Positions 4,116 to 26,353 of a DNA stretch of 64,000 nt are shown here, in pieces. The notes beneath the pieces were generated by a model that searched no databases, had not been told where the DNA came from, and saw nothing but the letters and a program-made list of their open reading frames with translations. Positions within the stretch are counted from its first letter, which is position 1. The number at the start of each line of letters is the position of its first letter. This DNA is from an uncultured Clostridia bacterium (GTDB lineage Bacteria; Bacillota; Clostridia; TANB77; CAG-508), in the NCBI GenBank assembly GCA_934162615.1, contig CAKPJK010000001.1, positions 29,754 through 93,753 of the forward strand, given 5' to 3'. A program made the position numbers and the translations under genes.

Positions 4116-4880
4116 GTGGGAAAAATAGTATCAGTAGCAAACCAAAAAGGCGGAGTAGGAAAGACTACAACAACAATAAACTTAAGTACAATGCTAGCAA
4201 AAAAAGGAAAGAAAGTATTACTAATAGATGCAGATCCTCAAGGAAATGCAACAAGTGGAGTAGGAGCAGAAAAAGAAGTAGAATACTCAACATATGACAT
4301 ATTAGTATCAGATGTTGATATGGTACAAACAGTAGAAAAAACAATGATAAAAAATTTATTAGTATGCCCATCAAACATAAATCTAGCAGGAGCAGAAGTA
4401 GAATTAGTATCAATGATGTCAAGAGAACAAAGACTAAAAGAAAAATTAGACGAAGTAAGAGATAAATTTGACTACATATTAATAGATTGCCCACCATCAT
4501 TAGGACTAATAACATTAAATGCATTCACTGCTTCAGACAGTGTTTTGATACCAGTACAATGTGAATACTATGCATTAGAAGGACTTGGACAACTGCTAAA
4601 CACAATAAACTTAGTAAAAAAACACCTAAACAAGACACTAGAAATAGAAGGAGCACTTCTAACAATGTATGATGCAAGAACAAATCTATCAAACCAGGTA
4701 GTAAAGGAAGTAAAAAAATACTTTGGAGACAAAGTTTACAAAACTGTTATACCTAGAAATGTAAGGTTAAGTGAAGCACCAAGTTATGGAATGCCTATAA
4801 CAGAATATGACCCAAAATCTAAGGGAGCAAAGACATACGAGAAATTTACAAAAGAATTTTTAAAAATTAATAATGGATAA
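4116..4880 (+). CDS. parA: Chromosome partitioning ATPase ParA/Soj
   Basis: GTG start. Deviant Walker A NQKGGVGKTTT. 254 aa. Followed by parB. Confidence 0.93.
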   Translation: MGKIVSVANQKGGVGKTTTTINLSTMLAKKGKKVLLIDADPQGNATSGVGAEKEVEYSTYDILVSDVDMVQTVEKTMIKNLLVCPSNINLAGAEVELVSMMSREQRLKEKLDEVRDKFDYILIDCPPSLGLITLNAFTASDSVLIPVQCEYYALEGLGQLLNTINLVKKHLNKTLEIEGALLTMYDARTNLSNQVVKEVKKYFGDKVYKTVIPRNVRLSEAPSYGMPITEYDPKSKGAKTYEKFTKEFLKINNG

Positions 4881-4894
4881 AATAAGAGAGGAAA

Positions 4895-5755
4895 GTGATA
4901 AAAATGCCTAAAATGACTGGATTAGGAAAAGGGTTGGATGCTTTATTTGGACCAACACCAGAAGAAGAAAAAATAAAAGATGATGATGTACTTAAAAATT
5001 TAAAAATAACAGAAGTAGAGCCAAACAGAGAACAACCAAGAAAAAACTTTAATCAAGAAGCATTAGAAGAACTAGCAGATTCAATAAAAGAATATGGATT
5101 AATACAACCAATAGTTGTAACAGAAAAAGATGGATATTACTGTATAATCGCAGGTGAAAGAAGATGGAGAGCGTGTAAACTAGCAGGATTAGAAGAAATA
5201 CCAGCGATAGTAAGAGAAGACGACGAAAAAAAGAATAAAGAAATAGCATTAATAGAAAATATTCAAAGAGAGGATTTAAATCCATTTGAAAAAGCATTGG
5301 GAATCAAAAATTTAATGCAATCATACAACTTAACACAAGAAGAAGTTGCAAAAAAATTAGGAAAAAGCAGAAGTACAATAGCAAACTCAATAAGAGTTTT
5401 AAACTTAGAGCCACGTGTATTAGAACTAGCAAAACAAGGCAAAATATCCGAAGCACACTGTAAATTGTTGCTTGCAATAACAGATCCAGAAAAACAATAT
5501 TTAACAGCAATTGATATTATAGAGAGAGGAACAACAACAAGAGAATTAGAGCAAACAAATAAAGAAATAAACAAAAAGCAAGTATCAAAAGAGGAATTGA
5601 AAAAAATAAATATCTTATACAAAGATATAGAAAATACTTTCCAAGGATTTTTTGGAACAAAAGTAAAAATGGCTCCAGGAAAGAAAAAAGGAAAAATAAT
5701 AATAGAATATGCATCAAATGATGATTTAGAGAGAATTTTAAATATTATAAAATAG
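4895..5755 (+). CDS. parB: Chromosome partitioning protein ParB/Spo0J (start may be the ATG at 4904)
   Basis: GLGKGLDALF N-terminus, ParB box IIAGERRWRA, HTH region LTQEEVAKKLGKSRSTIANSIR. Confidence 0.93.
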   Translation: MIKMPKMTGLGKGLDALFGPTPEEEKIKDDDVLKNLKITEVEPNREQPRKNFNQEALEELADSIKEYGLIQPIVVTEKDGYYCIIAGERRWRACKLAGLEEIPAIVREDDEKKNKEIALIENIQREDLNPFEKALGIKNLMQSYNLTQEEVAKKLGKSRSTIANSIRVLNLEPRVLELAKQGKISEAHCKLLLAITDPEKQYLTAIDIIERGTTTRELEQTNKEINKKQVSKEELKKINILYKDIENTFQGFFGTKVKMAPGKKKGKIIIEYASNDDLERILNIIK

Positions 5756-5768
5756 AAAGGTTGATTAA

Positions 5769-6284
5769 ATGCAGGAAATAACTGAAATTTTAAAAACAGA
5801 TAATTATTTGTTAAGTTTAAGTGTATTAGTTTTAATATTATTTATTGGAGTCATAGTATTATTAATAAATAATGTTAATATGTCAAGAAAATACAAAAAC
5901 TTTATGAAAAAATTAGGAAATGGCAAGGATCTAGAAGAAGATTTAAGCAATTATATGTATAGAGTTGACAGAGTTGAAAAACAAAATGGTCAAATAATGG
6001 AATTTTGTAAAAGCCTAGATAATGATTTATCAAAATGTATACAAAAAGTTGGAGTTGTTAGATATAGCGCTTTTAAAGATACAGGAAGTGATTTAAGTTT
6101 TGCAGTAGCATTATTAGATGAGCAAAATTCAGGTGTTGTATTTAATGGCATTTATTCTAGAGAGATGTCTAATATTTATGCTAAACCGGTTGAAAAGGGT
6201 AATTCTTCTTATACATTGTCTGCGGAAGAGGCAGAGGCTATTAGAAGGGCTATTAATTCAAATAATGTATATAGGGAAAAATAA
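5769..6284 (+). CDS. DUF4446-family protein (conserved partner downstream of parB in Firmicutes)
   Basis: N-terminal TM, then VGVVRYSAFKDTGSDLSFAVALLD..GVVFNGIYSRE..YAKPV pattern as I recall for DUF4446. Synteny after parB. Confidence 0.75.
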   Translation: MQEITEILKTDNYLLSLSVLVLILFIGVIVLLINNVNMSRKYKNFMKKLGNGKDLEEDLSNYMYRVDRVEKQNGQIMEFCKSLDNDLSKCIQKVGVVRYSAFKDTGSDLSFAVALLDEQNSGVVFNGIYSREMSNIYAKPVEKGNSSYTLSAEEAEAIRRAINSNNVYREK

Positions 6285-6330
6285 ATTAGGGATAATTATA
6301 ATATATCAAAAAAAGAATAAAAAAGTCAAT

Positions 6331-7653
6331 TTAGGCTTTTTTATTCTTTTTTTCTATTGTACACACATTTTTCCATGCTATTAAAATACATATCATAAAG
6401 ATTAACATATGCCTGTATGTGAATCTCGTGTGAATAATGGTATGATTACTTAGTACTAAATACCATACGATAGGCATTAATGAAATTAATAATATTGGTA
6501 ATGTTATATTTAAATAATCTTTTTTATTTTGTAATTTAATTTTATATTTATTTATATTTAATAAAAAGATAAATATTCCAAAGTTTCCAATAATAGCACT
6601 ATAAATTATATTTGATAATGTAAAACTTCCTATTACTTCTGATATTTTTGTTGTTTTAAAGCTTACACTTGTTTCAGTTCTATAAATAACTTGCAAAATA
6701 GCACTTTTAATAATACCTTCATTATATAAAATATCATATATAAGCCATTTGCTAAACCAAGTTAATGCATAACCTAATAACCATATTAGACTTGATTTTA
6801 TTATGATTTCTATAAAATATTTATATTGTAAATCGCTATTTTCTTTTTGTTTATAAGTTATATATAAAATTAATGGAATAGCAAGTGTAATTAAAGGAAC
6901 TGTTAAATAATCTACGTAATTTGTTATACACGCAATTATAAAAATAAATAAATATAAATTTTTAATTTTATCAATTCTTTTAAGTAATATTATACTTGAT
7001 ATCATCATAACTAAAAATACAGGAGCACTTTCTAAAGAATAGGATACCAAAAAATATCCATATAATATTAATGAAACTGCAAATATTCCGGCATTTATTA
7101 TTCCTATTTTATTTTTAATTAATTTTATTAACCAAATAAATAAGAATATAAAAATAATTAATAAAAGAATGCGAATTTCACTAATATTAAAAAATATTAA
7201 CAATGTTCTAAGGATAGGTAAATATCCATGCCAATAACGAGCATATGTGACAGATGTATCAATATTTCCATCTAAAAATTCAGCTAATTCTCCAACAGTG
7301 TCATAATCTTCAATATTATTTAATGAAATTGAATCTCCATTTTGATCAGTAAGTGAATTTTTTGTGATATTTTTGTTATAGTTTTTTCTTACAGCCATGC
7401 ATGAATAAAGTGGATTTTTGTTGTCTATAGAGTAAGCTTCGTTTATCATTAATGCATCTGTATAATTATTATTTACAACGTGTGACCAATCAAAAAATTG
7501 ATACAAATTTCCTTCTTCTGTAAGTATTTTTGAGGATTTTTTTATATTTTTTTCTATTATATTTGAAGGAAATAAAGAACTTATAAATAATAAAAAAATA
7601 AATATTAATAATAATCCTAAAAAAATTAAAGGGTATTTAATTATTCTTTTCAT
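6331..7653 (-). CDS. Polytopic integral membrane protein, function unknown; operonic with the GT2 gene
   Basis: 440 aa, at least 9 hydrophobic segments. Start lies 2 nt from the stop of the upstream GT2 gene. Confidence 0.6.
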   Translation of the reverse strand: MKRIIKYPLIFLGLLLIFIFLLFISSLFPSNIIEKNIKKSSKILTEEGNLYQFFDWSHVVNNNYTDALMINEAYSIDNKNPLYSCMAVRKNYNKNITKNSLTDQNGDSISLNNIEDYDTVGELAEFLDGNIDTSVTYARYWHGYLPILRTLLIFFNISEIRILLLIIFIFLFIWLIKLIKNKIGIINAGIFAVSLILYGYFLVSYSLESAPVFLVMMISSIILLKRIDKIKNLYLFIFIIACITNYVDYLTVPLITLAIPLILYITYKQKENSDLQYKYFIEIIIKSSLIWLLGYALTWFSKWLIYDILYNEGIIKSAILQVIYRTETSVSFKTTKISEVIGSFTLSNIIYSAIIGNFGIFIFLLNINKYKIKLQNKKDYLNITLPILLISLMPIVWYLVLSNHTIIHTRFTYRHMLIFMICILIAWKNVCTIEKKNKKA

Positions 7654-7654
7654 T

Positions 7655-8377
7655 TTATTTTTCTCTTTTTCTTTCTATTTTATATTTTTTTCTATTTAAT
7701 GATAATTTACATATTAAATTTAAATGTCTAAAACCATCTTGTATAGTTTTTAAATGAGGTTTTTTATCTCGTAAGTCTTTTTTTAATATAGTTGGAACCT
7801 CAGTCATTTTTAAATTATTAATTTTTGCAATTATTATCATTTCACTTGCGTATTCCATTCCAAGATGAGATAAATTTAAATTAGTTATGCTTTGTGTTTT
7901 ATAAGCACGTAATCCACAATGGTAGTCCTTTATAGGTGTGTGAAATAATAAATTTGCAAAATCAGATAGAAATTTTACGCCTATTTTGTGAGATAAAGGC
8001 ATGGCACCTTTTTCAATACCACCTTTAAATCTGTTTCCAACTACTAAATCATAGTTGTTATGTAAATTTTTTAAAAATCCTTCTATATGATAAAAGTCAT
8101 AACTTCCATCAGAGTCACCCATTATGCAGTATTTGCCATATGCGTGTTTAGTACCGTTTATTAATGTGGCTCCATAACCTTTTTCTTTGCAAATAACAAC
8201 TCTTGCACCATTTTCTTTTGCTATTTTTACACTATTATCTGTGCTATTGTTGTCTGATACAAGTATTTCTGCATTTAAATTTTTGTCTTTAATGCATTTT
8301 TGTATTTCTTTTATGCAATATTCCAATGTTTTTTCTTCATTTAAACATGGTAATATAAATGTATATTCTTTTTCCAT
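7655..8377 (-). CDS. Family 2 glycosyltransferase (polyprenyl-phosphate sugar synthase-like)
   Basis: ILPCLNEE..., SDNNSTDNS, GYGATL and GDSDGSYD (DxD-like) motifs. 240 aa, no TM. Confidence 0.85.
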   Translation of the reverse strand: MEKEYTFILPCLNEEKTLEYCIKEIQKCIKDKNLNAEILVSDNNSTDNSVKIAKENGARVVICKEKGYGATLINGTKHAYGKYCIMGDSDGSYDFYHIEGFLKNLHNNYDLVVGNRFKGGIEKGAMPLSHKIGVKFLSDFANLLFHTPIKDYHCGLRAYKTQSITNLNLSHLGMEYASEMIIIAKINNLKMTEVPTILKKDLRDKKPHLKTIQDGFRHLNLICKLSLNRKKYKIERKREK

Positions 8378-8567: not shown

Positions 8568-8659
<92 letters not shown>

Positions 8660-8733
8660 AATATTTTAAAGATATAAGACCATAAATTTATAATTTTATA
8701 GATTTAAGATTTTATATCTTTATTTTTATATAT

Positions 8734-8823
8734 GGAGATGTACCCAAGTGGTGAAGGGGACTGTTTGCTAAACAGTTAGGTCCCGAAAGGGGCGCGGAGG
8801 TTCGAACCCTCTCATCTCCGCCA
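8734..8823 (+). tRNA. tRNA-Ser (anticodon GCU), CCA encoded
   Basis: GGAGATG acceptor stem, anticodon stem-loop ACTGT-TTGCTAA-ACAGT, long variable arm, GGTTCGAACCC T-loop, 3' GCCA. Confidence 0.9.
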
Positions 8824-8937: not shown

Positions 8938-8966
8938 TTGAAAAATAAAAAAAAATAAGTTATAAT
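8938..8966 (+). promoter_or_regulatory. Sigma-A type promoter ahead of the pilin-like genes
   Basis: TTGAAA (8938-8943), 17-nt spacer, TATAAT (8961-8966). Confidence 0.45.
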
Positions 8967-8996: not shown

Positions 8997-9350
8997 GTGC
9001 ATAAATTAAAAAAGATATTTTTTATAGTAATTACAAATATATTTATTATATCAAATATATTTAATGTAACTTTCGCATACATAAATCCGGGTGACTATAA
9101 GCCATCTGAAGTAACACAATCAGATTACCAAACTGCGTTTACCAAAGCAGGAGTTGTGTTGGGTGCAATTAGAAATGTAAGTGTAGTTGTATCAGTAATT
9201 GTTTTAATGGTAATAGGAGTTAAATATATAATTGGTAGTGTAGAAGAAAGAGCAGAATACAAAAAAACAATGATTCCATATATTATTGGATGTGTATTAG
9301 CTGTTTCCGGTACAACTCTAGTATCATTTATATATAATGCAGTAAAATAA
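8997..9350 (+). CDS. VirB2/TrbC-like T4SS pilin candidate, paralog 1
   Basis: GTG start. Signal peptide ending VTFA, then a two-TM hairpin with charged loop: VVSVIVLMVIGVKYIIGSVEERAEYKKTMIPYIIGCVLAV. Topology typical of VirB2. Confidence 0.6.
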   Translation: MHKLKKIFFIVITNIFIISNIFNVTFAYINPGDYKPSEVTQSDYQTAFTKAGVVLGAIRNVSVVVSVIVLMVIGVKYIIGSVEERAEYKKTMIPYIIGCVLAVSGTTLVSFIYNAVK

Positions 9351-9356
9351 AAGTAG

Positions 9357-9875
9357 GTGAAAATAGTGAGAAAGAAAGTATTTATAATATTTTTTTTGAT
9401 ATTTGTATTATTTCCAATAATATCTAATATAGATATAGTACAAGCACAATCATTTTCTACATCAGGACAGAGTCAATCATCTAACACCAATAATGGCAAG
9501 ACAAGTACTAATGGAAGTACTAATAAGGGGTCAAACTCATCAGCGGGATCAACGAGTACAGATTCTGGCACATCACTTTCAGATGTAATTTCTGGTGGAG
9601 ATTCATTTATTTCAGATGGTAAAGAGGGTTCTGCTCAAATAAACAAATGGCAATTGGAAGGAGTTTCTTCAAGTATATATAATATTTTATTAATATGTGG
9701 TGTTATAGTGGCGGTAATAATTGCTTCAGTTTTAGGAATAAAATTTATGTTAGGTTCGGTAGAAGAAAAAGCAGATATCAAGGCAGCTATGGTTCCATTT
9801 ATAATAGGATGTGTTGTTGTATTTGGAGCATTTGGAATATGGAAAATTGTAGTTACAATTGGAAATGATTTTTAA
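9357..9875 (+). CDS. VirB2/TrbC-like pilin candidate, paralog 2, with S/T/N/G-rich insert (start 9357 or GTG 9366)
   Basis: Signal peptide ending VQA. About 45 aa of low complexity (SGQSQSSNTNNGKTSTNGSTNKGSNSSAGSTSTDSGTS). Same hairpin motif GIKFMLGSVEEKADIKAAMVPFIIGCVVV. Confidence 0.6.
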   Translation: MKIVRKKVFIIFFLIFVLFPIISNIDIVQAQSFSTSGQSQSSNTNNGKTSTNGSTNKGSNSSAGSTSTDSGTSLSDVISGGDSFISDGKEGSAQINKWQLEGVSSSIYNILLICGVIVAVIIASVLGIKFMLGSVEEKADIKAAMVPFIIGCVVVFGAFGIWKIVVTIGNDF

Positions 9876-9949
9876 ATAAGTTTTTAAAGTTTACTTAGAA
9901 AACTAGGTAATTTTTTATATAAAATATAATAAAAAGGGAGGAAATCAAA

Positions 9950-10300
9950 ATGAAAAAAACAATGAAAATACTTGTAACAGTATTAATTGCACTTATATTA
10001 GTAACTTTTTGTAGTAGTGTATTTGCTGCTGAATTATCACCTTCTGATTTGGATTCAAAAATTAAATATGGTGAATCTGATGCTTTAGCAAATAAGGCAG
10101 GACAAATAATGGGTATGATAAGAAACATAGCAGTAATTGCTGCAGTTATTATATTAATGGTATTAGGTGTTAAATACATGTTAGGTTCTGTAGAAGAAAA
10201 AGCAGAATACAAAAAATCATTTATGCCATTAATAATAGGTATTATATTAGTTGTATCTGCAACAGCAATTGCATCATTTATATTTAACATGGCAAAATAA
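9950..10300 (+). CDS. VirB2/TrbC-like pilin candidate, paralog 3
   Basis: SD GGGAGG. Signal peptide ending VFA. Hairpin AAVIILMVLGVKYMLGSVEEKAEYKKSFMPLIIGIILVV. Confidence 0.65.
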   Translation: MKKTMKILVTVLIALILVTFCSSVFAAELSPSDLDSKIKYGESDALANKAGQIMGMIRNIAVIAAVIILMVLGVKYMLGSVEEKAEYKKSFMPLIIGIILVVSATAIASFIFNMAK

Positions 10301-10317
10301 TTAAAGAAAAATTTAAA

Positions 10318-10350
10318 AAGAATAATTCTTTCAAGAATTATTCTTTTTTT
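10318..10350 (+). terminator. Strong rho-independent terminator after the pilin genes
   Basis: Near-perfect palindrome AAGAATAATTCTT/AAGAATTATTCTT followed by a T-run. Confidence 0.7.
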
Positions 10351-10538
10351 GGTTTAAAACGCCAAAAGTAAACATCCCTATATAAAATATTTAAAATGCT
10401 TAAAAAACGATATTACAAAAATGTTACAAATATATTAAATTTCCACTTTTTTTGCTAAAAACTATACAATTATCCACAGGTTTATGTTATAATATATATT
10501 GTATAATTATAATAAGAAAGATACGGAGGAAAAAGAAA

Positions 10539-10892
10539 ATGCAAAGCTATGAAATTCCAAGAAATTATAAAGGAGAAGGAAGAATATTATATATATTTTC
10601 TACAAAAGGATTAATATATACATGTGCTGGAGCTGGAATAGGACTAATATTTTATTTTATATTAAAAATGCTTGGTTTTTCTATGGTTGGACTTATAATT
10701 ACTCTAATATTTGCAGTAATAGGATTTGTAATAGGGACATTAAAAATACCAGAATCTTCTTCAATGGAGTTAACAAGAAAAACGGGTGGAGAAAATATAG
10801 ATGATGTAATTATAAGATGGATTAAATTCAAGAAAAATGGCAACAAGATATATGTATATAAACCAGAGGAGGAAACAAAAGATGGAAAGTAA
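10539..10892 (+). CDS. PrgI/TcpE-like (VirB3-like) small T4SS membrane protein
   Basis: True start is ATG 10539 (SD GGAGG); the track ORF starts upstream at an alternative codon. Begins MQSYEIPRNYKGEGRILYIFSTKGLIY, then two TMs, as in PrgI-family proteins that precede VirB4. Confidence 0.55.
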   Translation: MQSYEIPRNYKGEGRILYIFSTKGLIYTCAGAGIGLIFYFILKMLGFSMVGLIITLIFAVIGFVIGTLKIPESSSMELTRKTGGENIDDVIIRWIKFKKNGNKIYVYKPEEETKDGK

Positions 10893-12117
10893 TCAATTAA
10901 TTAATTTATTAACAATAATATTAGGAATAATGATTGGAATTTTATGTATACTTTGTGTAACATTTTTAGTATTAAAATTAAAAAGCAGAGAACATAAAGA
11001 AAAAAAGGTTGTAAAACAACAAGAGGAAAATGCTAAAGTCAAAGCGAAAACACTTACACCACAAAATTATACAAAAGAATCAATATTTAAATTTATGGAA
11101 TTTGATAAAATTGATGATAATATGGTTATACAAAAAGGTGGAAAGAGATTTTTAATGGTTATAGAGTGTCAAGGTATTAATTATGACTTGATGTCTGGGC
11201 TAGAAAAAAATAGTGTAGAACAAGGATTTTTACAATTTTTAAATACTTTAAGATATCCAATACAAATTTATGTACAAACAAGAACAGTAAATTTAGGAAA
11301 CAGTATTAATACATATAAAGAAAGAGTTGATGATATTTCTAAGCAGTATGCTGAAAAACAAATGCAATACAATCAAAAAATTCGTTCTGGACAATATACA
11401 GATGAAGAGTTAAGTAAAGAAAAATATGAATTAATAAGACAAAGAAATTTGTATGAATATGGTATTGATATAATTAACAATACAGAAAGAATGAGCTTAA
11501 ATAAAAATATATTAAGTAAACACTATTATGTAATAATACCATATTATCCTGATGAAGCATCAAATGGAGCTTATCAACAAGATGAAATAACAAGTTTAGC
11601 ATTTTCTGAATTATATACAAAAGCACAATCAATTATAAGTTCACTTGCAGTTTGTGGAATAAATAGCAAAATATTAGATTCAACAGAACTTGCAGAATTA
11701 TTATATGTTGCATACAACAGGGATGAATCTGAAATGTTCAACTTAAGAAGAGCAATGAATGCTGGTTATGAAGATTTGTATTCTACAGCTCCAGATGTTT
11801 TAAATAAGAGAATGAAAGAACTTGACATAAAAATTGAACAAGATGCAATTAAGAAAGCAAATGAAACAATTTATGATGTAATTGAAGATAATGAAAAACA
11901 AAGAAAGATAAAACAAAAAGAAGCAGAATTAGATGAATTAATTGATCAAATGGCTAAAGCTCTAATTGAGGAAAATAAAAGATCTATAGGAGAAGATACT
12001 GCAGAGGCTGCTATAGAAAAGATAGATAAAGATAGCAAAAAGAAAACAAAAGAAGGAGGAGAAGAGGATGGCAAAAAAACAAAAACAACAAGAAGAAAAT
12101 CAACAAGAACAATTTAG
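10882..12117 (+). CDS. T4SS-associated membrane-anchored protein with coiled-coil/basic tail, function unknown
   Basis: ATG 10882 with SD GAGGAGG; overlaps the previous gene by 11 nt. N-terminal TM. The segment FLMVIECQGINYDLMSGLEKNSVEQGFLQFLNTLRYPIQIYVQTR resembles N-terminal regions of Gram-positive VirB4-type ATPases (from memory, unverified). No Walker A. Confidence 0.5.
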   Translation: MESNQLINLLTIILGIMIGILCILCVTFLVLKLKSREHKEKKVVKQQEENAKVKAKTLTPQNYTKESIFKFMEFDKIDDNMVIQKGGKRFLMVIECQGINYDLMSGLEKNSVEQGFLQFLNTLRYPIQIYVQTRTVNLGNSINTYKERVDDISKQYAEKQMQYNQKIRSGQYTDEELSKEKYELIRQRNLYEYGIDIINNTERMSLNKNILSKHYYVIIPYYPDEASNGAYQQDEITSLAFSELYTKAQSIISSLAVCGINSKILDSTELAELLYVAYNRDESEMFNLRRAMNAGYEDLYSTAPDVLNKRMKELDIKIEQDAIKKANETIYDVIEDNEKQRKIKQKEAELDELIDQMAKALIEENKRSIGEDTAEAAIEKIDKDSKKKTKEGGEEDGKKTKTTRRKSTRTI

Positions 12118-14029
12118 AGAATATAGAGAAGAAGATGTTTCAATATTAAAAAAGAAATCTATAAAAGAATTAATAGCTCCATCAGGAATAGATGCTTCAA
12201 ACATTGACCATTTAGAGATAATATCTAATACAAAAAGATATGCTCGTAGCTTTTTTGTATCATCTCTTCCTAGAATGTGTACATTCCCAGAATTATTTAG
12301 AGATTTATATATGTTTGGAGATACAAATACATCAATATATATAAATCCTATAAAAGAGGATAAATCTCAAAATGATTTAAATAGAGTCATAAATGAACTA
12401 GAAACAGAAAGAATTGTTGCAGCAGACAAAGGAAATATAAATAGGGAAAGTACAATTTCACAAAAAAGAATGGAGGCAGAGCAATTAAGAGATGAAATAG
12501 CAGCTGGATTTAATAAATTATTTGAAGCATCTATCATTTCTACACTTTTTGCATATAGTTTGGAGGATTTGGATAGATATACTAAGTTGTTATCTTCTGA
12601 AATGTCAAAAACATTAGTTGGAATTAAAACAGCATGGGGAATGCAAGAAGATGCTTTTAAATCTAACTTACCTTTTATGAATGACAGAATTAATAAAACA
12701 CATACATTTGACAGAAATTCAATGGGAACTGTATTTCCATTTACGACATCAGAAGTTGGACATCCTACAGGTGTTCCATTAGGGTTTAACAAACAAACAG
12801 GTACACCAATATTGTTTGATAATTTTCACTCATCACTTACAAACTATAATATGGTTATATTTGCAAAGTCTGGAGCTGGTAAATCTGTAACAATGAAAAC
12901 ATTGATTTCAAGGTCATCTGTTTTAATGGGAATTGAAAGTTTAGCACTTGATGCTGAAGGTGAGTATACAATTGTGGCAGAAAGTTTAGGTGGAATTAAT
13001 GTTGTAATAAGTCCAACATCAAAAACAGTTATAAATTTGTTTGATGTTGAAACTGAAATTATTAAAGATGAAATAACAGGTAAAGAAAGAGTAACTTTAA
13101 ATATAGAAAATAAGGTAGAGGATGTTACACAGGCTTTACTTACTATGGCTAGAGGTAGTACTCGTTCTGATGAAGTAAATGAATTGACAAAGCAAATTAT
13201 TGCAGAGTCTGTTGCAGAAGAATATGCGGCTTTAGGTATTAATAGTAATCCAGAAAGCTTGTATAAACAGTCTGCAGGAGTTATGAGAGGTAATATTTTC
13301 TCTAGGGAGAAAAAAGATATGCCTACAATTGGCTCTTGGTATAGAAGAATTCAAGGAAAGGCTAGGGAAAATACTAATTCAGACTATCAATATCATTACA
13401 GTTATTTATTAAAAGTTATGAAACAATACATAAGAGAATATGATGGACAAATGGCTTATTTTGATGGACAGTCAACTTTTGAGTTGTTAGAGGGTGCACC
13501 ATTTATAAACTTGGATATTTCTCAGTTGGAAGAAAGATTTGCAAGACCCCTTGCACAACAAATTTTACTTTCTTGGATTTGGGAAAAATTCGTTAAGAAA
13601 AATAGTGAAGACAGAAAAAAAGCTACACAAAAGAGAGTTTTAGTTGATGAGGCTTGGATGTTATTGCCATATCCTGAGGCTGTTGACTTTTTAAATAAGA
13701 TGGCTAGACGTGCGAGAAAAAGAAATGTTTCCTTGGCTATTGTTTCTCAAAGATTTCAAGATTTCTATGAGAAACCTGAGGCTCAAGCAGTTCTTACTTC
13801 TTCAGATACAAAACTATTTTTAGCACAAGATAAATCTGAAATACAATACTTAAAAGAGGTGTTTAAACTTTCAGAAGGTGAGGCTAACTTTTTGGTTACT
13901 TGCCAAAAGGGTGAGGGATTACTTAAAGTTGGTGCTGATTCGGCTATTTTAAAAATTATGCCGACTAAGAAAGAGTTTGAGTTTGTTGAGACAAACTTGA
14001 ATCAAATTGCAAAGAGAAATAATGCGTAA
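12068..14029 (+). CDS. virB4: VirB4-family T4SS ATPase (TrsE/TcpF/ConE-like)
   Basis: Walker A FAKSGAGKSVTMK, Walker B RVLVDEAWMLL (DEAW). 653 aa. Start overlaps the upstream gene by 50 nt; SD GGAGGAG. Confidence 0.9.
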   Translation: MAKKQKQQEENQQEQFREYREEDVSILKKKSIKELIAPSGIDASNIDHLEIISNTKRYARSFFVSSLPRMCTFPELFRDLYMFGDTNTSIYINPIKEDKSQNDLNRVINELETERIVAADKGNINRESTISQKRMEAEQLRDEIAAGFNKLFEASIISTLFAYSLEDLDRYTKLLSSEMSKTLVGIKTAWGMQEDAFKSNLPFMNDRINKTHTFDRNSMGTVFPFTTSEVGHPTGVPLGFNKQTGTPILFDNFHSSLTNYNMVIFAKSGAGKSVTMKTLISRSSVLMGIESLALDAEGEYTIVAESLGGINVVISPTSKTVINLFDVETEIIKDEITGKERVTLNIENKVEDVTQALLTMARGSTRSDEVNELTKQIIAESVAEEYAALGINSNPESLYKQSAGVMRGNIFSREKKDMPTIGSWYRRIQGKARENTNSDYQYHYSYLLKVMKQYIREYDGQMAYFDGQSTFELLEGAPFINLDISQLEERFARPLAQQILLSWIWEKFVKKNSEDRKKATQKRVLVDEAWMLLPYPEAVDFLNKMARRARKRNVSLAIVSQRFQDFYEKPEAQAVLTSSDTKLFLAQDKSEIQYLKEVFKLSEGEANFLVTCQKGEGLLKVGADSAILKIMPTKKEFEFVETNLNQIAKRNNA

Positions 14030-14053
14030 AGTATGTCAGGAGGTTTAAACTTT

Positions 14054-17000
14054 ATGAAGATTTTTCAAAATAAAAGTTTGTTTAAAAAGTTAATTATTAT
14101 ATTTTTGGTGATTACAATTTTTAGCTTTTGTATGCCTAAGGTTTCGAGGGCAGGTGATTTAGGAGGAAAGTTGCTAAACCCAATAATGTCATTTTTTGTT
14201 GCATTAGGTGATGGAACTATGACTATTATACAAAAAATGGTTTTACAAATTGATGAGAGTGTAATAAATATTGATTCTTCATCAAGTTTTTGGGCTAAAT
14301 TTATAGTTATAATTGCTGCGATAGCTGTTGTTTCCGTAATAGTAATTGCAACTGTAATGACTGCGGGTGCTGCCGATGCCGCCATGATTGGACTTGGCAC
14401 GGCGTTAAAAGGAATAACAGCAGCTGCAATAGTTATAGGGACAACGACTGTTACTTTTCCTATAACTACGCAAATAGTAGAGGGAATGCTGCCAGATAGT
14501 TTTATTTTACCACTGTATGAGGTAACACCTCAAGAAATTTTCTCTAATAAAATACCTTTGCTAGATGTCGATTTTTTTAATCCTATGGATGATCAAACGT
14601 ATACAAAAGCAGCAGAAACAAAAAAAGTTAAGGAAGATGATACAACAGAACATATACTTACTTATATAAAAGATGAATTAAAAAATAATTATGGTTATGA
14701 TGAGAAAAAAGCAGAGTCTATGAATATAGATGATAAAAATAGTGATCCTAGTAAATATGTACAAAAGAAATGGGATTATGATGGAAGAACATATGTGTTT
14801 GCATATTGTGAAGGAGAATCAGAGGACTATTTAGTTACTAGATATGAAAAGGACGGTAAGAATCCCCAATGGTTAAAAGACGAAGAGAATGATTCATCTA
14901 GCTATGGTAGAAAATTGACATGGAGTGATGGAAAAAACTCTGCATGGAGAAATGGAAATGCTGAGGTTAGTATAGAAGGTGAGGAAAAAACTGTAACAGT
15001 AAAAGATGAATCAAGTATTACAATTACGTCTACTGCTAAAGAGCTAAGAACAATTGTTGCAAATTGGTATAATATTTTAAGAGATATTGCATTAGTTACA
15101 TTATTATCTGTATTAGTTTTTATTGGTATAAAAATATTAATATCTAGTACTTCTGGAGAAAAAGCAAAATATAAACAAATGTTAGTAGACTGGTTAGTCG
15201 CAATGTGCTTGCTGTTTTTAATGCAGTATATTATGTCTTTTTCAAATATGTTAGTAAAAAAAGTTATTGAAGTTGTGGATACAACTAGCGTTTCAGCTAC
15301 TAAAGCTACAGAAATAAAAGAACCAAATATTTTTGTAATAACAGATAAAAATAAAGTTCAAAAAGCATATGAAGTTCTTATTGGAGATGGTGGAGAAGAA
15401 AATGCGTATTCTAAGTATTTCTTAGAAGCTGATTATTCAACTCCTGCTGTAAGTAAGAGCGATGCTGTAGCATTGGCATGGCCTGCAGAAAACTTTATGC
15501 AACAAGCTAGAATTAATGCGCAGTTAAGAGAAGTTAAACAAGATGCGGATGGTAATTATGACACTGATGACGTTAATGAAACATATGTTGCTATAGGATG
15601 GAAGCTGATTTATGTTGTTTTAGTAATATATACTGTAATATTTATTTTTACATATGTAAAAAGGGTATTATATATGGCATTTTTAACCATTATTGCTCCT
15701 TTAGTAGCTATGACATATCCAATTGATAAAATAAATGATGGAAAAGCACAGGCTTTTGACATGTGGTTTAAAGAATATATATTTAATTTATTAATACAAC
15801 CATTGCATTTAATTTTATATACGGTTTTAGTTGGCTCTGCAATGGAATTTGCAAGTAAAAACATTATTTATGTTGTAGTTGCCTTAGGCTTTTTAACACC
15901 AGCTGAAAAATTGATGCGTAGATTCTTTGGATTTGAAAAAGCACATACTCCTGGATTATTAGGGGGACCTGCTGGTGCAGCTATTATGATGAGTGGTATG
16001 AATAAATTATTAGGAAAAAGAAGTGATTCAAAATCTTCTGGTTCATCTTCAAATGGAGGTTCTGAAGATGGTGATGAGGATAAATCTAGTTTGAGGTTTA
16101 ATGATAATTTTGATAAAACAGGAGCATTTTTAGGCAAAGGACCTCAAGAACTTGAAAATAAATTGGAAAATAATAATGATGATCAAAAATTAATAGATTT
16201 ACAGAAACGAAAAGAAGAGGCAGAAAATGAAATTAAACAAAATGGTGCTGGAAAAAAGGAAGCAGAAAATGATTTAATTAGCATAAATAGTGAAATGAAA
16301 AAAATAAATGAATCTAAAAATGGTAAAGTAGAGCAAAGAGAAGGTGTTTCAAAAAAGGATGCTCTTCAGTTATCAAAATGGGATAATTTCAAAAGAACAA
16401 TAAAATTGGGTGGAAAATCATTGGCTAGAGCAGGAAGATATTATGGGCATAAGAAATTATCTAACGTTGGTAAAAAAATACAAAATTCTCATCCAGGTAG
16501 AACAATATTGAAATCGTATGGAGGACTTGCGGCTGGTACTGCTGGAGTTATTTTAGGAGGAATTGCTGGAGGAGATCCAACAAAGGCATTCCAATATGGG
16601 GTTGCTGGTGCTACAGGTGGATATAAGGCAATGGATGCTGTTTTACCAGAATTTGGATCAGACGAAGACTATAAACAGGCAAATGAATTAAGAAAAGAGA
16701 CTTTTTATGGTGATGAATATGATCAAAAGAAACTAGAGAAATATATAAAACATCAAAAACAAGACTATGATAATAGAGTACAAATAGAAACAGCTCTGGG
16801 AAGTAAAAAATCAGCAGATGAGTTTATAAAAAATGATATGGGCGAGTATATGAAGAATGGTGTTACTGATATAGACGAAATGATGACTTTAAATAGTATG
16901 GTACAAGATGGAACGTTTACAGATAGAAATATGGCTATTGCAACAAGAAAATATGCTAAGAGAGCTGGATCAAAAATTGGAAATATGAAACAAAAAGATC

Positions 17001-17137
17001 AAGATGAATGGCATAAGACATTTGCTAAAGAATTTAGTGAAAATCCTCGATTAAGAAAGGAAAATCTTGATGCTGATAAAGAAGCAGATAAAGTTATAAA
17101 ATTAACTAATACTTATTTTGATAGAATGAATGAATAA
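14054..17137 (+). CDS. VirB6/TrbL-like polytopic T4SS channel protein with long hydrophilic C-terminal domain (alternative start 14033)
   Basis: SD AGGAGG before ATG 14054. Signal peptide ending VSRA. At least 6 TM segments in the central region; coiled-coil Lys/Glu-rich C-terminus. Immediately downstream of virB4, as in Tn916 orf15 and ICEBs1 conG. Confidence 0.6.
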   Translation: MKIFQNKSLFKKLIIIFLVITIFSFCMPKVSRAGDLGGKLLNPIMSFFVALGDGTMTIIQKMVLQIDESVINIDSSSSFWAKFIVIIAAIAVVSVIVIATVMTAGAADAAMIGLGTALKGITAAAIVIGTTTVTFPITTQIVEGMLPDSFILPLYEVTPQEIFSNKIPLLDVDFFNPMDDQTYTKAAETKKVKEDDTTEHILTYIKDELKNNYGYDEKKAESMNIDDKNSDPSKYVQKKWDYDGRTYVFAYCEGESEDYLVTRYEKDGKNPQWLKDEENDSSSYGRKLTWSDGKNSAWRNGNAEVSIEGEEKTVTVKDESSITITSTAKELRTIVANWYNILRDIALVTLLSVLVFIGIKILISSTSGEKAKYKQMLVDWLVAMCLLFLMQYIMSFSNMLVKKVIEVVDTTSVSATKATEIKEPNIFVITDKNKVQKAYEVLIGDGGEENAYSKYFLEADYSTPAVSKSDAVALAWPAENFMQQARINAQLREVKQDADGNYDTDDVNETYVAIGWKLIYVVLVIYTVIFIFTYVKRVLYMAFLTIIAPLVAMTYPIDKINDGKAQAFDMWFKEYIFNLLIQPLHLILYTVLVGSAMEFASKNIIYVVVALGFLTPAEKLMRRFFGFEKAHTPGLLGGPAGAAIMMSGMNKLLGKRSDSKSSGSSSNGGSEDGDEDKSSLRFNDNFDKTGAFLGKGPQELENKLENNNDDQKLIDLQKRKEEAENEIKQNGAGKKEAENDLISINSEMKKINESKNGKVEQREGVSKKDALQLSKWDNFKRTIKLGGKSLARAGRYYGHKKLSNVGKKIQNSHPGRTILKSYGGLAAGTAGVILGGIAGGDPTKAFQYGVAGATGGYKAMDAVLPEFGSDEDYKQANELRKETFYGDEYDQKKLEKYIKHQKQDYDNRVQIETALGSKKSADEFIKNDMGEYMKNGVTDIDEMMTLNSMVQDGTFTDRNMAIATRKYAKRAGSKIGNMKQKDQDEWHKTFAKEFSENPRLRKENLDADKEADKVIKLTNTYFDRMNE

Positions 17138-17157: not shown

Positions 17158-18108
17158 ATGTATAATTTAATTAGATTTTTTAATCAAAACAGAAAGAAAA
17201 TTATAAAGATTATACTGATTATAGTCTTTATAATTGGAGTAATACAGGTATTGAATTTTATATCAAAAAGACAAAATACTTCAAATGTGGAAAATATTAT
17301 GACACAAAATATAAATTATGGGGATGAGGTTATTTCTTCTAAATCACCAGTAACAGGTAAATCAGTTTCAAAAACTGATTTAAAGAATGCATCTAATATA
17401 ATAAAACAATTTATTGATTACTGTAATAATGGTGATTTGGAATCGGCATATAATCTTTTAACTGATGAATGCAAAGAAGAAATGTATCCAACATTAAATG
17501 ATTTTAAAAATATTTATTTTAACTATACATTTGGAGGAGAAAAGAAAACATATACAATTGAAAACTGGCTAGATAATGTTTATCAAGTAAGAATTACTGG
17601 AGATATATTATCTACGGGAAAAATAGATAATACCGTAACAAAACAGGATTATGTAACGATAGTTGAACAAGATGATGGATATAAATTAAATATTAATAGT
17701 TATGTTGGAAGAAGTAAACCTAACAAAGTTACAAAAATAGATGATATAAAAGTAACAGTGACTCAAGTTGATTCTTATATGGATCATAAAGAGTACAATT
17801 TAATTGTAGAAAATAATTCATCTAATGATATTTTATTAGATACAGGTGATGATACAAAATCAATATTTCTATTAGATACAAATGATAAAAAGACATATTT
17901 TTTAAGTAATGAAATAATCTCAAACCAACTTATAGTACAAAGTAAATATAAAACAAGTTTAAAAATTAAGTTTGCAAATGCATATGCTTCAAGTAATTCA
18001 CTAAAAAATATCGTATTTACAAAAGTAGTGTTGAATTATGATGAATACAAAAATTTAGATAATAAAAAGCAATTTAAAGATTTTGAAGAATTAAAAATAA
18101 AAATATAA
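17158..18108 (+). CDS. Membrane-anchored T4SS accessory protein, possible NTF2-like/VirB8-like fold
   Basis: SD AGGAGG. N-terminal TM. IKQFIDYCNNGDLESAYNLLTDECKEEMY segment, typical of NTF2-like domain N-termini. Confidence 0.45.
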   Translation: MYNLIRFFNQNRKKIIKIILIIVFIIGVIQVLNFISKRQNTSNVENIMTQNINYGDEVISSKSPVTGKSVSKTDLKNASNIIKQFIDYCNNGDLESAYNLLTDECKEEMYPTLNDFKNIYFNYTFGGEKKTYTIENWLDNVYQVRITGDILSTGKIDNTVTKQDYVTIVEQDDGYKLNINSYVGRSKPNKVTKIDDIKVTVTQVDSYMDHKEYNLIVENNSSNDILLDTGDDTKSIFLLDTNDKKTYFLSNEIISNQLIVQSKYKTSLKIKFANAYASSNSLKNIVFTKVVLNYDEYKNLDNKKQFKDFEELKIKI

Positions 18109-18130: not shown

Positions 18131-21100
18131 TTGGAAAAATTTAAAAAGATATTAAAATCAATTTTTTCTTTTAAGTTAATAATTTTAGTAATAGTTATTG
18201 TATTAATTATATTTATTATATTATCTTCTGGTTTTTATTTTATAACTATAGATGATGGTGAATGGGAAGATGCAGAATTTGGAAATCCATCAAGTTATAC
18301 AGAACATGTTAGTGTTAGTGGAGAGACTGGATTAGCTGTTAGTAAGAGTGATTTGAAGACAACCGCATTAAAGGGGTTAAAATATACTGATGAACAAATT
18401 GCAAGTATGTCTGATGAAGAGGTTATAGAGAAACTTCAAATTAATCGAAAATTAAAGAAAAGTCCAAAAGTTAAAAGTTTAGATGAAGTTACACAAGCAG
18501 AATTATTATGGTGTATGAATGATGTTTATTCTAAATATTTAGATAAACCTGAAGAATTAGAAAAATTGTTGAATGCAGAAATAATAACTCAATATCCTGA
18601 TTTAGGTGATGCTGAGGGAAAACTGAATGGTATTATAAAATTTGAAAGACATAAAGAAGATGGTTCATCTGAATTTCTTACATATGTTGATTCAGGAACT
18701 TTTGACAAATATGTTAATGATGGAGATAGTAAGGCTTTAGATTATTTTACTTTAGACGATACGGGAAATGTTGTAATTGCTTCGATAAATACAACAACAG
18801 AAACTTTAGGTTTAAATGATAGCGAAGCGAAGATAAGTGATTTTACTGCAAATTTAAGTGAAGAAAATAAAAATGGTGATGGTAGTTATAAAAAAGTAAC
18901 TAAAAATGTTTCAAAACAGACAATATATTATAAAAACTATGTTCAGGATTATACATTACCGTTTAACTATTTATGGTCATTGTTAATTATTGGAGAAGAT
19001 AAAGAATTTGTAATGGAATTGGCTGAGTTAGCAGAAAATAGTGAAATTACAATTTCTATTTATGATAATATAACAACGAATACTAATACTGATGTTTATA
19101 CATATAAAAAAGAGACAAGAACGGATACATATGTAAGAGTTACTCCATCAACAACGTATGGAATAAAAAATGTTCCAACAAAAGGATATTGGTGGCCAGC
19201 AGATAAACTTACTGATGCTGGAGCTACAATTGGTGTTGATGATTGGAAAAATGATGCTGATTATGAGACAGATGAAACAGAATATAAGATTACCCATACT
19301 GTGAAGTCTGATATTAATGCGCCAACAATTGCTTTAACTAAGGCTAATGTATGGATTGTTGATTATAGTGTTGAGTATACGTATAAAGAGGCAGAAGTCG
19401 TATCAGATGATACAAATTCAAAGGAAGAAGAGGATACAGATTTTGTATTGGATTCAGATGCATCTGGAGATTCTGATAGTAATAGTGCTTTATTAAATTG
19501 TGAACATGCACAAGAAATGACAAGAAAAACAAGAAAATATATTGAAGATCATAAGCCAGATACGACAACTAGTAGATCATCTTTTTCAATAACTGGGACA
19601 AGTTCTGGAACGAATAGTAAAAAAGATAATTCGGTTTTTGATTCTGTAATTAAAGAAGATGTGAAAACAGATACAAATTCAAATTTATTACATCCTTCTA
19701 AAAAGGATGATACAACAAAAAGTGATTCAAGTAGTAGTAAAGAGGATGTACCGACTACTGTTCCGGAACCTCTTCTTACAGTACTACCTAGTTATGTAAG
19801 ATGCGATAAATATAAACATAAAATCGATAGAAAACAAACTACGACTTCAACAACAACACAACAAAGTTATGTTGCTCAAACACCTGTAAGTAATCCTAAG
19901 GATGATAAGGATGCAGATACTGATAATTTTGTTAAAATTTTATGTAACAAAAAACATAAAAAAGCAAAAAATTATCTAACAGATGGAACTACAACATCTT
20001 GGCTTTGGGAGATTATGAGTGTGAACTGTTCTGATAAGCTTATTGATTTAACAAAATATTTATTTTATAAAGCAACTGGTACTAATTTTGGAAAAAAAGA
20101 GTATGAATATACTGGATTGGAACCACCTGTTTCTGTTGATTATTCAAAATTTGTTGGTGATTATATAGTAAAAACAAACGATCCAAATGCTGCACCTGTT
20201 GTGAATGATAAATTAAAATTAAAAGCGGGGTTAGAGGTATGGCTTAGAGATGCAAGTACTCAAAAGGCTAATGCACTTTCTATTGTAGATAAGGTTTTTG
20301 AATGCCAAGAAAAATATAATGTTAATGCTATTTTCATTTATGCCTTTTTAAGAGACGAATCAGGAATTGGATCTGCAAACTCAACGGCAGTAAAACAAAA
20401 TAACTGGGGAAGTTGGAATGTTGGAGCATCATATCCATCACCACAAGAAAATATAGAAACAATAGCAAAAGGTATTTCGACAGGAAGTTTTTATTTTACA
20501 AAAGGAAATATATCTGTTGCATCTATAGGAAAAATTTATTGTCCTAATGAGCCGGCTCATCCTGCTCAAGGGGATTTATGGATTGAAACAGTTCAAAAGT
20601 TTATGACACAATTATATGGAGCAATGGGAATAAGTGTATCTACAGAAACTAGTGGAGGAACTGTTGCAGAAGGTGGAGTTGGAACAATAGGTGTTTACCA
20701 GTCTGGAAGTGGATCTAAGTTTAACTTATATTTGCAAGGAAGTGGAGCACCTTGGGCAAATGAGGATTATGGTAATGACCATAGTATGGCTAAAGCAGGA
20801 TGTGGGCCAACTGCTGCTTCAATAATATCAAGTGGATATAATGCAAGTATTAATCCTAGTACATTTAGAGCTAAAATGATTCAATTATATGGAACGGGAA
20901 ATCATTCATCAGCAACATTAATTGAAAAAGCATTTAATCAATTGGTTCCTGGAGTTAAGACAGAAACTACGACTTCATTTGACGAGAATAAAATAAGAAA
21001 TTGTTTAAAATCTGGAGGTCAAGTTTGGCTTGTAGTATCTCATTGTAAATATACATCGGGGGCACATTGTATTGCACTTATTGATTATAATTCAAGTAAT

Positions 21101-24981: not shown

Positions 24982-25358
24982 TAAAAATATTATTTTAATT
25001 AATTAAAAGTTAATAAATAAAATACGAAATAATTAAATTTATTATTTAAATATTAAATAAATTAATTTTTATTTAAATAAATAGTTTTAATTTAATAAAT
25101 CAAAAAATAAAAATAATATTTATTTATTATTTTTATTTTTTTGAATTTTATAAAATAATAAATAATTAATTAATTTATTATTTTTTTATTTTATTTTTAA
25201 AATGTAATTGCAACAGAAAATAAAAAATAGAAAAATATTATAATATCTATTGCATAAATTAACTTTTTATGTTAATATATTTGTATTATATTTCAAACAA
25301 AATTTTATTAATTCGAATTAAGGCAAATCTGCCAAATTTTCAAGAAAAAGTTAAATAA

Positions 25359-26253: not shown

Positions 26254-26353
26254 AATTATAAAATTGTTTGAAATAAAAAAAATATTATATATTTGAAAAA
26301 ATTATAAATTTTTCAATATATAATATTTTTTTAAATTAATTATTTAATTTATT

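Follow-up and report, generated by a model that had tools for sequence, protein, structure and literature searches.

The window described here is a 64,000-nucleotide stretch of DNA from an uncultured Clostridia bacterium of the TANB77/CAG-508 lineage (assembly GCA_934162615.1, contig CAKPJK010000001.1, positions 29,754 to 93,753 of the forward strand). It carries three tandem genes for VirB2/TrbC-like pilins or their homologues, followed by genes that encode a type IV secretion system (T4SS). The pilin paralogs are numbered 1 to 3 in the 5' to 3' direction; in comparisons between species, array positions are counted back from the last pilin, which is position -1. All three lie on the + strand. 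Paralog 1 (8997-9350, position -3) encodes a 117-residue prepilin with a GTG start and predicted cleavage after VTFA. Paralog 2 (9357-9875, position -2) encodes 172 residues from a GTG start, with predicted cleavage after VQA; a better-placed GTG at 9366, which has an AGGTGA ribosome-binding site, gives 169 residues. Paralog 3 (9950-10300, position -1) has an ATG start and a GGGAGG ribosome-binding site; it encodes a 116-residue prepilin with predicted cleavage after VFA.

The N-termini of the three open reading frames (ORFs) are basic and then hydrophobic, ending in VTFA, VQA and VFA, respectively. The signal peptide is followed by a variable hydrophilic segment and then, by hydropathy, by two hydrophobic stretches around the loop G(V/I)K(Y/F)(M/I)(L/I)GSVEE(K/R)A(E/D)(Y/I)K, in which GSVEE is invariant. 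Paralogs 1 and 3 are 43% identical over 117 residues (E=7e-33); paralogs 2 and 3 are 49% identical over 81 residues (E=5e-15). As judged from these alignments, the three are genuine paralogs and a chance resemblance is excluded. The initial annotation had reported three tandem frames at these coordinates and on this strand, with these cleavage motifs and this loop, and all of it was confirmed.

Species-representative genomes were scanned for relatives with the VirB4-type ATPase encoded downstream of the array (tblastn). This gave 551 confirmed relatives, and the best 80 were examined for synteny; in these 80 loci, only homologues of the window genes were mapped. All 80 come from uncultured Clostridia of the gut, with humans, mice, rabbits, chickens and ruminants as hosts, and have ATPase identities of 81-98%. 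The clade is a large one of small-genome (about 1.6 Mb), spore-forming gut Clostridia; two complete chromosomes of relatives measure 1.57 and 1.70 Mb. The array has three genes in 50 loci, four in 29 and six in one. A signal-like N-terminus is present in 262 of 264 clade pilins. V/T-x-A motifs are present, with V24 invariant and A26 kept in at least 90% of orthologues; prepilins of this kind are presumably cleaved by signal peptidase.

Paralog 2 contains a low-complexity insert (9450-9587) in the segment before helix 1, with 78% Ser, Thr, Asn and Gly. The insert is without counterpart in paralogs 1 and 3. Its alignment columns are almost unoccupied in 77 orthologues and it is missing from the closest genome, L008; it is therefore lineage-specific. 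The initial annotation was right about the presence and composition of this insert, and slightly off in its length, which is 46 rather than 45 residues.

Family membership was assessed with hidden Markov models (HMMs) from Pfam, for which the gathering thresholds are 27.9 bits (TrbC/VirB2, PF04956) and 26.6 bits (T4SS_pilin, PF18895). Paralog 3 passes both, with 46.0 bits over the full length of PF04956 (model positions 2-98 of 98) and 44.9 bits to PF18895. Paralog 1 scores 38.3 bits to PF18895, above threshold, and 27.0 bits to PF04956, just below it. Paralogs 1 and 3 thus belong to the VirB2/TrbC superfamily (Pfam T4SS_pilin); paralog 2 is sub-threshold and is placed with them because it is homologous to both. 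This agrees with the family named in the initial annotation. A database search with paralog 3 found 576 homologues, and the 120 listed all carry both PF18895 and PF04956. A few of the homologues already bear the name 'TrbC/VirB2 family protein' or 'VirB2 component (pilin)'; the pilin annotation itself is therefore not new. In NCBIfam, all three pilins have sub-threshold matches to the Mollicutes 'pilin-like conjugal transfer protein' family NF045849 (29.5 bits; the cut-off is 40). The AlphaFold2 model of paralog 3 (pLDDT 79) consists of a signal helix and a hairpin of two helices, H43-78 and H81-115.

The initial annotation had also raised the alternative that the ORFs encode holin-like, bacteriocin-immunity or other unrelated small membrane proteins. 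They are indeed small proteins with hydrophobic helices, and their structural matches are generic. However, they score above threshold to two Pfam pilin families, have predicted cleavable signal peptides and, without exception in the 80 species and the plasmid relatives, are linked to VirB3-, VirB4- and VirB6-like genes; neither a lysin nor a bacteriocin gene lies next to them. No support was found for this alternative, and its probability is negligible.

The array appears to be transcribed on its own. A candidate sigma-A-type promoter (TTGAAA-17-TATAAT, 8938-8966, + strand) matches the consensus at 11 of 12 positions. From a promoter scan alone this site is unconvincing, because the region is AT-rich and yields 25 promoter-like sites where 19.8 would be expected. 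Across 39 species, however, each hexamer is 80-99% conserved, within a spacer that otherwise varies. Downstream of paralog 3, a predicted intrinsic terminator (10315-10352, + strand) consists of a hairpin at 10315-10348 with a 15-bp stem (-16 kcal/mol, z=-4.77) and a T-run. A comparable hairpin and T-run follow the last pilin in 75 of 78 species and follow internal pilins in none of 77. The conserved promoter and terminator, both read from sequence, support the view that the array is bounded as its own transcription unit, as the initial annotation had proposed.

The last pilin gene has a leader of 74 nt (9876-9949, + strand), which contains conserved blocks and the GGGAGG ribosome-binding site. 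Over 77 species, the median gap from position -2 to -1 is 72 nt (interquartile range 67-81). In 69 of 78 species the last pilin gene has a Shine-Dalgarno sequence of at least 5 bases; at the other positions roughly half of the genes do. Leader blocks at 9880-9895 and about 9916-9921 are conserved in about 70 species and are not spaced like the usual -35 and -10 hexamers; an internal promoter, a processing site and a binding site for a regulator are all conceivable. Scanned with Rfam, the array region gave two tRNAs and no other RNA family.

The T4SS context given in the initial annotation holds, in that the array lies directly upstream of PrgI/VirB3-like, VirB4 and VirB6-like genes. These genes form a tightly packed operon on the + strand that begins about 190 nt past the terminator, with successive junctions of -56, -50, +3, +20, +22 and -1 nt. 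The first gene (10539-10892) encodes a PrgI/VirB3-like small membrane protein that scores 25.7 bits to PF12666 (PrgI; threshold 27), is 53-85% identical across species and overlaps the next gene by 56 nt. The second (10837-12117) encodes a TrsD/TraC-like protein of 426 residues with one transmembrane helix. It is a stand-alone homologue of the VirB4 N-terminal domain, matching positions 48-245 of an 894-position Mollicutes VirB4 model (E=1.9e-4); orthologues carry PF26593 (TraC-like). The third (12068-14029) encodes a short-form VirB4 ATPase of 653 residues with P-loop_TraG, AAA_10 and DUF87 domains and intact Walker A (AKSGAGKS) and Walker B (VLVDE) motifs; it scores 208 bits to the CD1110-family model NF045971 (cut-off 325).

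VirB4 is therefore split over two ORFs (10837-14029) that overlap by 50 nt. Relatives throughout the clade and on plasmids keep this arrangement, and the possibility of a frameshifted VirB4 pseudogene was dismissed for this reason; the conserved overlap of the two ORFs indicates that the split is natural.

The fourth gene (14033-17137) encodes an extended, polytopic VirB6-like protein of 1034 residues, with weak matches to the pLS20_p028 and MMCAP2_0566 conjugation membrane protein families. Embedded in it is a pilin-like hairpin (IGIKILISSTSGEKAKYKQ..., about residues 335-404, nt 15035-15244), which scores 20.1 bits to PF18895 at residues 335-401 and aligns with the pilin profile over 68 columns (hhalign, E=8.5e-6). 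Nearly all loci with a gene for the large protein after VirB4 have this pilin module in it, and it is also present in the homologue on a C. botulinum plasmid and in that of a metagenomic element (L091). The C-terminal half of the VirB6-like protein is long, hydrophilic and rich in Lys and Glu. Three loci (L023, L066 and L069) have the gene for the large VirB6-like protein, pilin module included, in two or three tandem copies.

Three further genes complete the cluster. The first, o316 (17158-18108), encodes a bitopic extracytoplasmic protein with a transmembrane helix, an NTF2-like domain and an Ig-like sandwich. Its AlphaFold2 model (pLDDT 83, pTM 0.71) has Foldseek matches to YjhA, the PBP2a N-terminal region and SnoaL-like proteins. 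It has no Pfam match, and its ortholog profile gave nothing when compared with PDB sequences; it could be an analogue of VirB8. The second (18131-21220) encodes a membrane-anchored cell-wall hydrolase of 1029 residues, a candidate VirB1 analogue, with Peptidase_C39_2 at residues 887-996; orthologues carry NLPC_P60, Amidase_5, Glucosaminidase or Phage_lysozyme2 domains. The last gene, o420 (21220-22482), encodes a second bitopic extracytoplasmic protein with one N-terminal transmembrane segment. It is found in most species at 27-41% identity, with no family match; its ortholog profile also gave nothing against PDB sequences.

The surroundings of the cluster are chromosomal. The left flank contains gidA, gidB, parA, parB, a DUF4446 gene, a GT2 gene pair and two tRNA-Ser genes (tga and gct; 8568-8823, + strand; ARAGORN, Rfam). 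The right flank contains genes for an ABC transporter, a DnaJ protein and a patatin, and then housekeeping and sporulation genes (SpoIIR and a GerM-type protein). Cluster order is kept in all 80 species, and relatives with pilins only about 70% identical keep the order from yidC-jag-trmE-gidA to the hydrolase. The parB/tRNA-Ser flank is present in 24 of the 45 loci checked for tRNAs and absent from 21. A conserved pair of M16 peptidase genes lies upstream in 24 loci of the full set; this neighbourhood marks a second fixed chromosomal site of the cluster, in a second subclade.

The position of the array immediately 3' of two tRNA-Ser genes would suit an integrated conjugative element (ICE), or the remnant of one, whose pilins served mating-pair formation. 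The nearest relatives outside the clade lie on mobile elements or plasmids with integrases and a coupling protein, and a PD-(D/E)XK transposase fragment is found 15 kb downstream; both would suit the same explanation. However, no relaxase, coupling protein or integrase is present among the ORFs scanned across the 64-kb window, and the window contains no second copy of the tRNA 3' end and hence no att-like repeat. The cluster occupies the same position, in the same gene order, in species whose housekeeping proteins have diverged to 80%, while the second subclade has it at another fixed site beside M16 peptidase genes. GC content of the cluster equals that of its flanks. An ICE at tRNA-Ser was rejected on the missing att repeat in the window and the conserved flanks and synteny; it is very unlikely.

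The evolutionary rate of the ATPase also argues against a mobile element. ATPase identity tracks ParA and ParB identity (rho 0.63-0.71), and ATPase dN/dS is 0.10, equal to that of ParA. Because the ATPase diverges together with ParA and ParB and under the same dN/dS as ParA, the cluster has the properties of a vertically inherited core function. The machine is chromosomally fixed and probably vertically inherited, a conjugative element is not supported, and transfer of a mobile element by the machine is unlikely. This context is the more important point, and the initial annotation had missed it: the locus is a domesticated, chromosomally fixed T4SS in true Firmicutes, with no relaxase in the window.

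Within this stable setting, the pilins themselves diverge quickly. The surface-facing components of the machine (the pilins, o316, the VirB6-like protein, the hydrolase and o420) diverge several times faster than the ATPase. In the closest genome, L008, the ATPase is 98% and GidA 97% identical to the window proteins, against only 37-39% for the pilins; in DNA sequence, identity of the flanking tRNAs and prgI is about 90%. The array is thus a sharply bounded divergence hotspot, with pilins at 37-39% between flanks at about 90%. In L008 (7070-8278), the first and last pilins are far more alike than those of the window, with about 70% core identity; the maximum within-array pilin identity across the clade is 83%. 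The likeness in L008 suggests gene conversion or cassette replacement within arrays. In one complete chromosome reconstructed from a metagenome (L084), an IS21-family element (IstA, IstB; 4331-6364) lies just upstream of the array; it is unique among the loci examined.

Divergence is not evenly distributed along the pilins. The helix-loop-helix core, including the loop, is 80-99% conserved, whereas the mature N-terminal segment is hypervariable. In paralog 3, dN/dS is 0.14 in the hairpin versus 0.97 in the mature N-terminal segment (25 species pairs). Low-complexity extensions precede helix 1 in the window and in L010, and follow helix 2, as GNN repeats, in L068 and L085; no long extension examined falls within the loop. 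Array positions as a whole have dN/dS values of 0.18-0.26, with paralog 1 at 0.26 and paralog 2 at 0.18, indicating purifying selection. The best cross-species match is at the same array position in 83 of 83 cases for position -1, 74 of 82 for -2, 71 of 82 for -3 and 24 of 31 for -4. Since best matches remain specific to position, the paralogs are old and individually maintained.

Taken together, the three prepilins are likely to form the first, separately terminated unit of a vertically inherited chromosomal organelle of type IV secretion type, rather than part of a conjugative element. Under this proposal, export by Sec and cleavage by signal peptidase I after V/T-x-A would leave the membrane with mature two-helix pilins of about 90 residues (about 140 in paralog 2). 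Their extraction would fall to the VirB4 hexamer, together with its separate TrsD-like N-domain and a VirB3-like anchor, and they would stack on a VirB6-like platform, for which the hairpin of the VirB6-like protein itself may be the nucleus. The resulting filament or conduit would cross the wall through a gap cut by the dedicated hydrolase. By analogy with VirB2-family pili, the GSVEE(K/R)A loop would line the lumen and the variable N- and C-termini, the site of all inserts, would face outward; this orientation is that of the established structures of the F, T and R388 pili. Owing to the terminator, pilin transcripts probably outnumber those of the machine. Paralog 3 is the probable major subunit: its ribosome-binding site is the strongest, a conserved leader of its own precedes it, and it is both the most conserved of the three and the best fit to the family. 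The other two paralogs are probably subunits of a minor or specialised kind. Candidate roles for the machine are adhesion, contact-dependent exchange and DNA uptake.

The same genes could work without an extracellular pilus. The pilin homologues would then be channel subunits embedded in the membrane or wall for the passage of substrates, as VirB2 is in some Gram-negative systems that have no pilus. VirB2 is needed in most Gram-negative T4SSs, whether or not they make pili (PMC12102498; PMC12857230). The pilin-like hairpin fused into the VirB6-like protein suggests assembly at the level of the membrane, and the lack of a VirB5-like tip protein among the window proteins points the same way. In contrast, the segment before helix 1 is near-neutral next to a constrained core, inserts occur at the termini only, and the array is a divergence hotspot between near-identical genomes. 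Such a pattern is in keeping with parts on which selection acts from outside. A high subunit stoichiometry is also suggested, since the array is a separate unit closed by a terminator and has a strong ribosome-binding site. A channel of this kind is rather doubtful, but it is the most probable of the alternatives considered.

A second functional alternative is a DNA-uptake or DNA-exchange apparatus like archaeal Ced/Ted or Helicobacter ComB, in which the pilins would form an import conduit. The composition of the locus, with VirB2-like pilins, a VirB4-type ATPase and a VirB6-like protein but no relaxase or coupling protein, is that of Ced/Ted (PMC12102498; PMC12857230), and there is a faint match of 23.7 bits to the CedD ATPase model. 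This match is far under the 600-bit cut-off, however, and no homology specific to Ced components was seen; as for DNA processing, the window has no feature that relates to it. In Southlakia, the one parallel that has been tested, the T4SS is essential independently of ComEC-mediated transformation (PMC12102498; PMC12857230). This alternative is unlikely.

Several points weigh against the reading of the array as the pilin unit of a domesticated organelle. Paralog 2 is below both Pfam thresholds (PF04956 21.2 bits, PF18895 16.9 bits). Foldseek comparison of the paralog 3 model with the PDB returned generic helical hairpins only (ATP synthase c subunit, EsxB; E>1), although it has no discriminating power here because the two-helix fold is so simple. 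PDB sequence searches with paralog 3, as well as with its profile, gave a single match, TrwL, the VirB2 pilin of R388 (8s6h), at a marginal E=0.07-0.08. The VirB2-type assignment is based on HMM scores, architecture and gene context, without a specific fold match. No VirB5-like tip protein was found among the family matches of the window proteins, and a VirB8-like label was not adopted for o316 since Foldseek gave no VirB8, TraM or TcpC match. The dN/dS values are approximate, with dS near saturation for many species pairs. Relaxase and coupling-protein genes were sought in the 64-kb window and in 10-kb flanks in relatives, and genes at a remote site are possible. Finally, the division into major and minor subunits draws only on ribosome-binding-site strength and conservation.

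Some other features of the window also stand out. On the - strand at 6331-8377, between the DUF4446 and tRNA-Ser genes, a GT2 enzyme of the polyprenyl-phosphate-sugar synthase type (AglJ/PpgS/PgfS-like) is encoded beside a 440-residue protein with about 8 transmembrane segments. The 440-residue protein has no family match, and tblastn found neither gene of the pair in 87 related loci (L001-L087). In the window species, the pair co-occurs with the Ser/Thr-rich insert of pilin 2; it could be an extracytoplasmic glycosylation pair, the link being a single co-occurrence. Two consecutive giant ORFs (46750-55386, 2878 residues; 56291-64000, running off the window end, >2570 residues) contain SdrD_B, SpaA/prealbumin-like, DUF11 and CarboxypepD_reg repeats and look like surface adhesins. 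The region 24000-28000 has a GC content of 17-19%, compared with about 28% elsewhere, and contains the truncated PD-(D/E)XK transposase gene (25605-26201), a DnaJ-domain gene and a patatin-like phospholipase gene.

Outside the clade, relatives are distant. In a 50%-clustered library, the ATPase of the clade is represented by one 65% representative and the next relatives are at about 40%. Among 20 ATPase relatives looked up, the names obtained were Heliorestis and a Peptostreptococcaceae metagenome-assembled genome; those named were all Firmicutes and there was no Patescibacteria label among the 20. Five outgroup contexts were compared: the Heliorestis convoluta chromosome, three metagenomic elements and the Clostridium botulinum plasmid pINGR16-02E1. 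They share the order pilin-like, VirB3-like, TrsD-like, short VirB4, VirB6-like, hydrolase, and integrase, partition, coupling-protein or other mobile-element genes surround several of the clusters. All five have one pilin-like gene each, with E values of 7e-15 to 2e-7 to the clade HMM and sub-threshold PF18895 scores of 19-25 bits, and two of the VirB6-like proteins carry the pilin module. A tblastn search with paralog 3 against 72,556 plasmids gave no match; the plasmid pilins surfaced through the ATPase and the HMM instead. Each of the five outgroups carries one VirB2-like pilin, so the TrsD-type branch of Firmicutes seems to have started with a single pilin; arrays of 3-4 genes are confined to the chromosomal version. 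In Heliorestis (L088, 16535-21724) and in the metagenomic elements L091 (from 20604) and L092 (from 18897), Tad-type T2SSE and T2SSF genes lie directly downstream of the T4SS; those of Heliorestis include an A24 prepilin peptidase.

Named TrsD-type clusters in Firmicutes (C. botulinum pINGR16-02E1, a 169-kb plasmid of C. beijerinckii and the Heliorestis convoluta chromosome) have the same gene order as the window and a short VirB4 that is 36-42% identical. They differ from it in having one pilin gene, and their genes are annotated as hypothetical or as DUF87 only. Models from the Mollicutes ICE (NF045849 of the Mbov_0395 family, the Mbov_0397 VirB4 and MMCAP2_0566) are matched by the three pilins, both ATPase halves and the VirB6-like protein, with all window scores below the curated cut-offs; the Mollicutes genes are mobile and include a single pilin. 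As the NF045849 family attests, a monoderm ICE was already known to encode a 'pilin-like conjugal transfer protein'.

The initial annotation had stated that Firmicute T4SSs are classically described as lacking VirB2 pilins. This is still the published view: a nomenclature review of December 2025 describes VirB2 as missing from Gram-positive T4SSs except those of Patescibacteria, regards the Patescibacteria systems as unique among monoderms in possibly making conjugative pili, and notes that the six-pilin array of Southlakia is essential (PMC12102498; PMC12857230). The T4SS of Patescibacteria is chromosomal, derives from the MPF-FATA class, has no relaxase and often lies close to the origin; it comprises TrsD, VirB4, PrgI/VirB3, VirB6 and tandem arrays of 2-11 divergent VirB2-like pilins. 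Since Gram-positive classes are described as lacking virB2, co-option of the pilins from other (diderm) systems was left open (PMC12102498; PMC12857230). Literature searches found no paper describing a chromosomal T4SS with a pilin array in this Clostridial clade, and a search linking TANB77/CAG-508 to T4SSs gave nothing relevant.

The Patescibacteria system (Ca. Southlakia epibionticum ML1, TM7x) is the closest parallel to the window cluster. Both have a monoderm core of the MPF-FATA type (PrgI/VirB3, TrsD, short VirB4 and VirB6) with peptidase or lysozyme genes downstream. Both are chromosomal and often origin-proximal, with no relaxase in the cluster and tandem arrays of PF04956/PF18895 pilins. 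The resemblance is architectural, and consists of the TrsD-like ORF, 3-4-gene arrays in 79 loci and parB/gidA adjacency in 24 of 45. Unlike the Patescibacteria, which are ultrasmall epibionts, the window host belongs to a spore-forming Clostridial lineage with genomes of about 1.6 Mb. Its arrays have 3-4 genes with stable positional orthology, compared with 2-11 genes in Patescibacteria.

The window pilins resemble the VirB2/TrbC pilins of Gram-negative systems (A. tumefaciens VirB2, RP4 TrbC, R388 TrwL) in their long signal peptide, two hydrophobic helices, short charged loop and linkage to virB3 and virB4; sequence similarity to solved pilins is marginal. In contrast to these systems, the host is a thick-walled monoderm, the mature N-terminus is about 20-25 residues longer and hypervariable, there are 3-4 paralogs, no VirB5 partner was found in the window and the cluster lies outside any transferable element. 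Tandem amplified and diversified pilin genes in a T4SS that is no longer conjugative are also found in Bartonella (Trw), Anaplasma and Rickettsia. Those arrays have been read as a means of surface variation or host-specific adhesion (PMC12102498; PMC12857230). They belong to diderm alphaproteobacterial pathogens and arose independently, whereas the window paralogs are ancient orthogroups with stable positions.

VirB2-like pilins therefore occur in ordinary Firmicutes: singly on Clostridium plasmids and other elements, and as conserved 3-4-gene arrays, within a chromosomally fixed machine, in hundreds of gut species. For this reason, inheritance of the pilins together with the TrsD-type machine is a testable alternative to co-option. 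Cultivable relatives, such as the C. beijerinckii plasmid, could show whether a Gram-positive T4SS builds a VirB2 filament.

A broader proposal can be put forward tentatively, as a possibility that may well prove wrong. A large clade of Clostridia may have converted a T4SS of plasmid type into an origin-proximal core organelle for building a VirB2 pilus across the Gram-positive wall, with a 3-4-member pilin array under diversifying pressure from outside. It would be a second case alongside the Patescibacteria system, to which it is possibly related. On this proposal, VirB2-like pilins and a VirB6 with a fused pilin hairpin would be ancestral to the TrsD-type T4SSs of monoderms and not borrowed from diderms. 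The role of such an organelle might lie in an obligate interaction between cells, for example the exchange of nutrients or signals, or attachment to the host or to partner bacteria. The locus flags a conserved, fast-evolving surface structure in the abundant uncultured gut microbiota.

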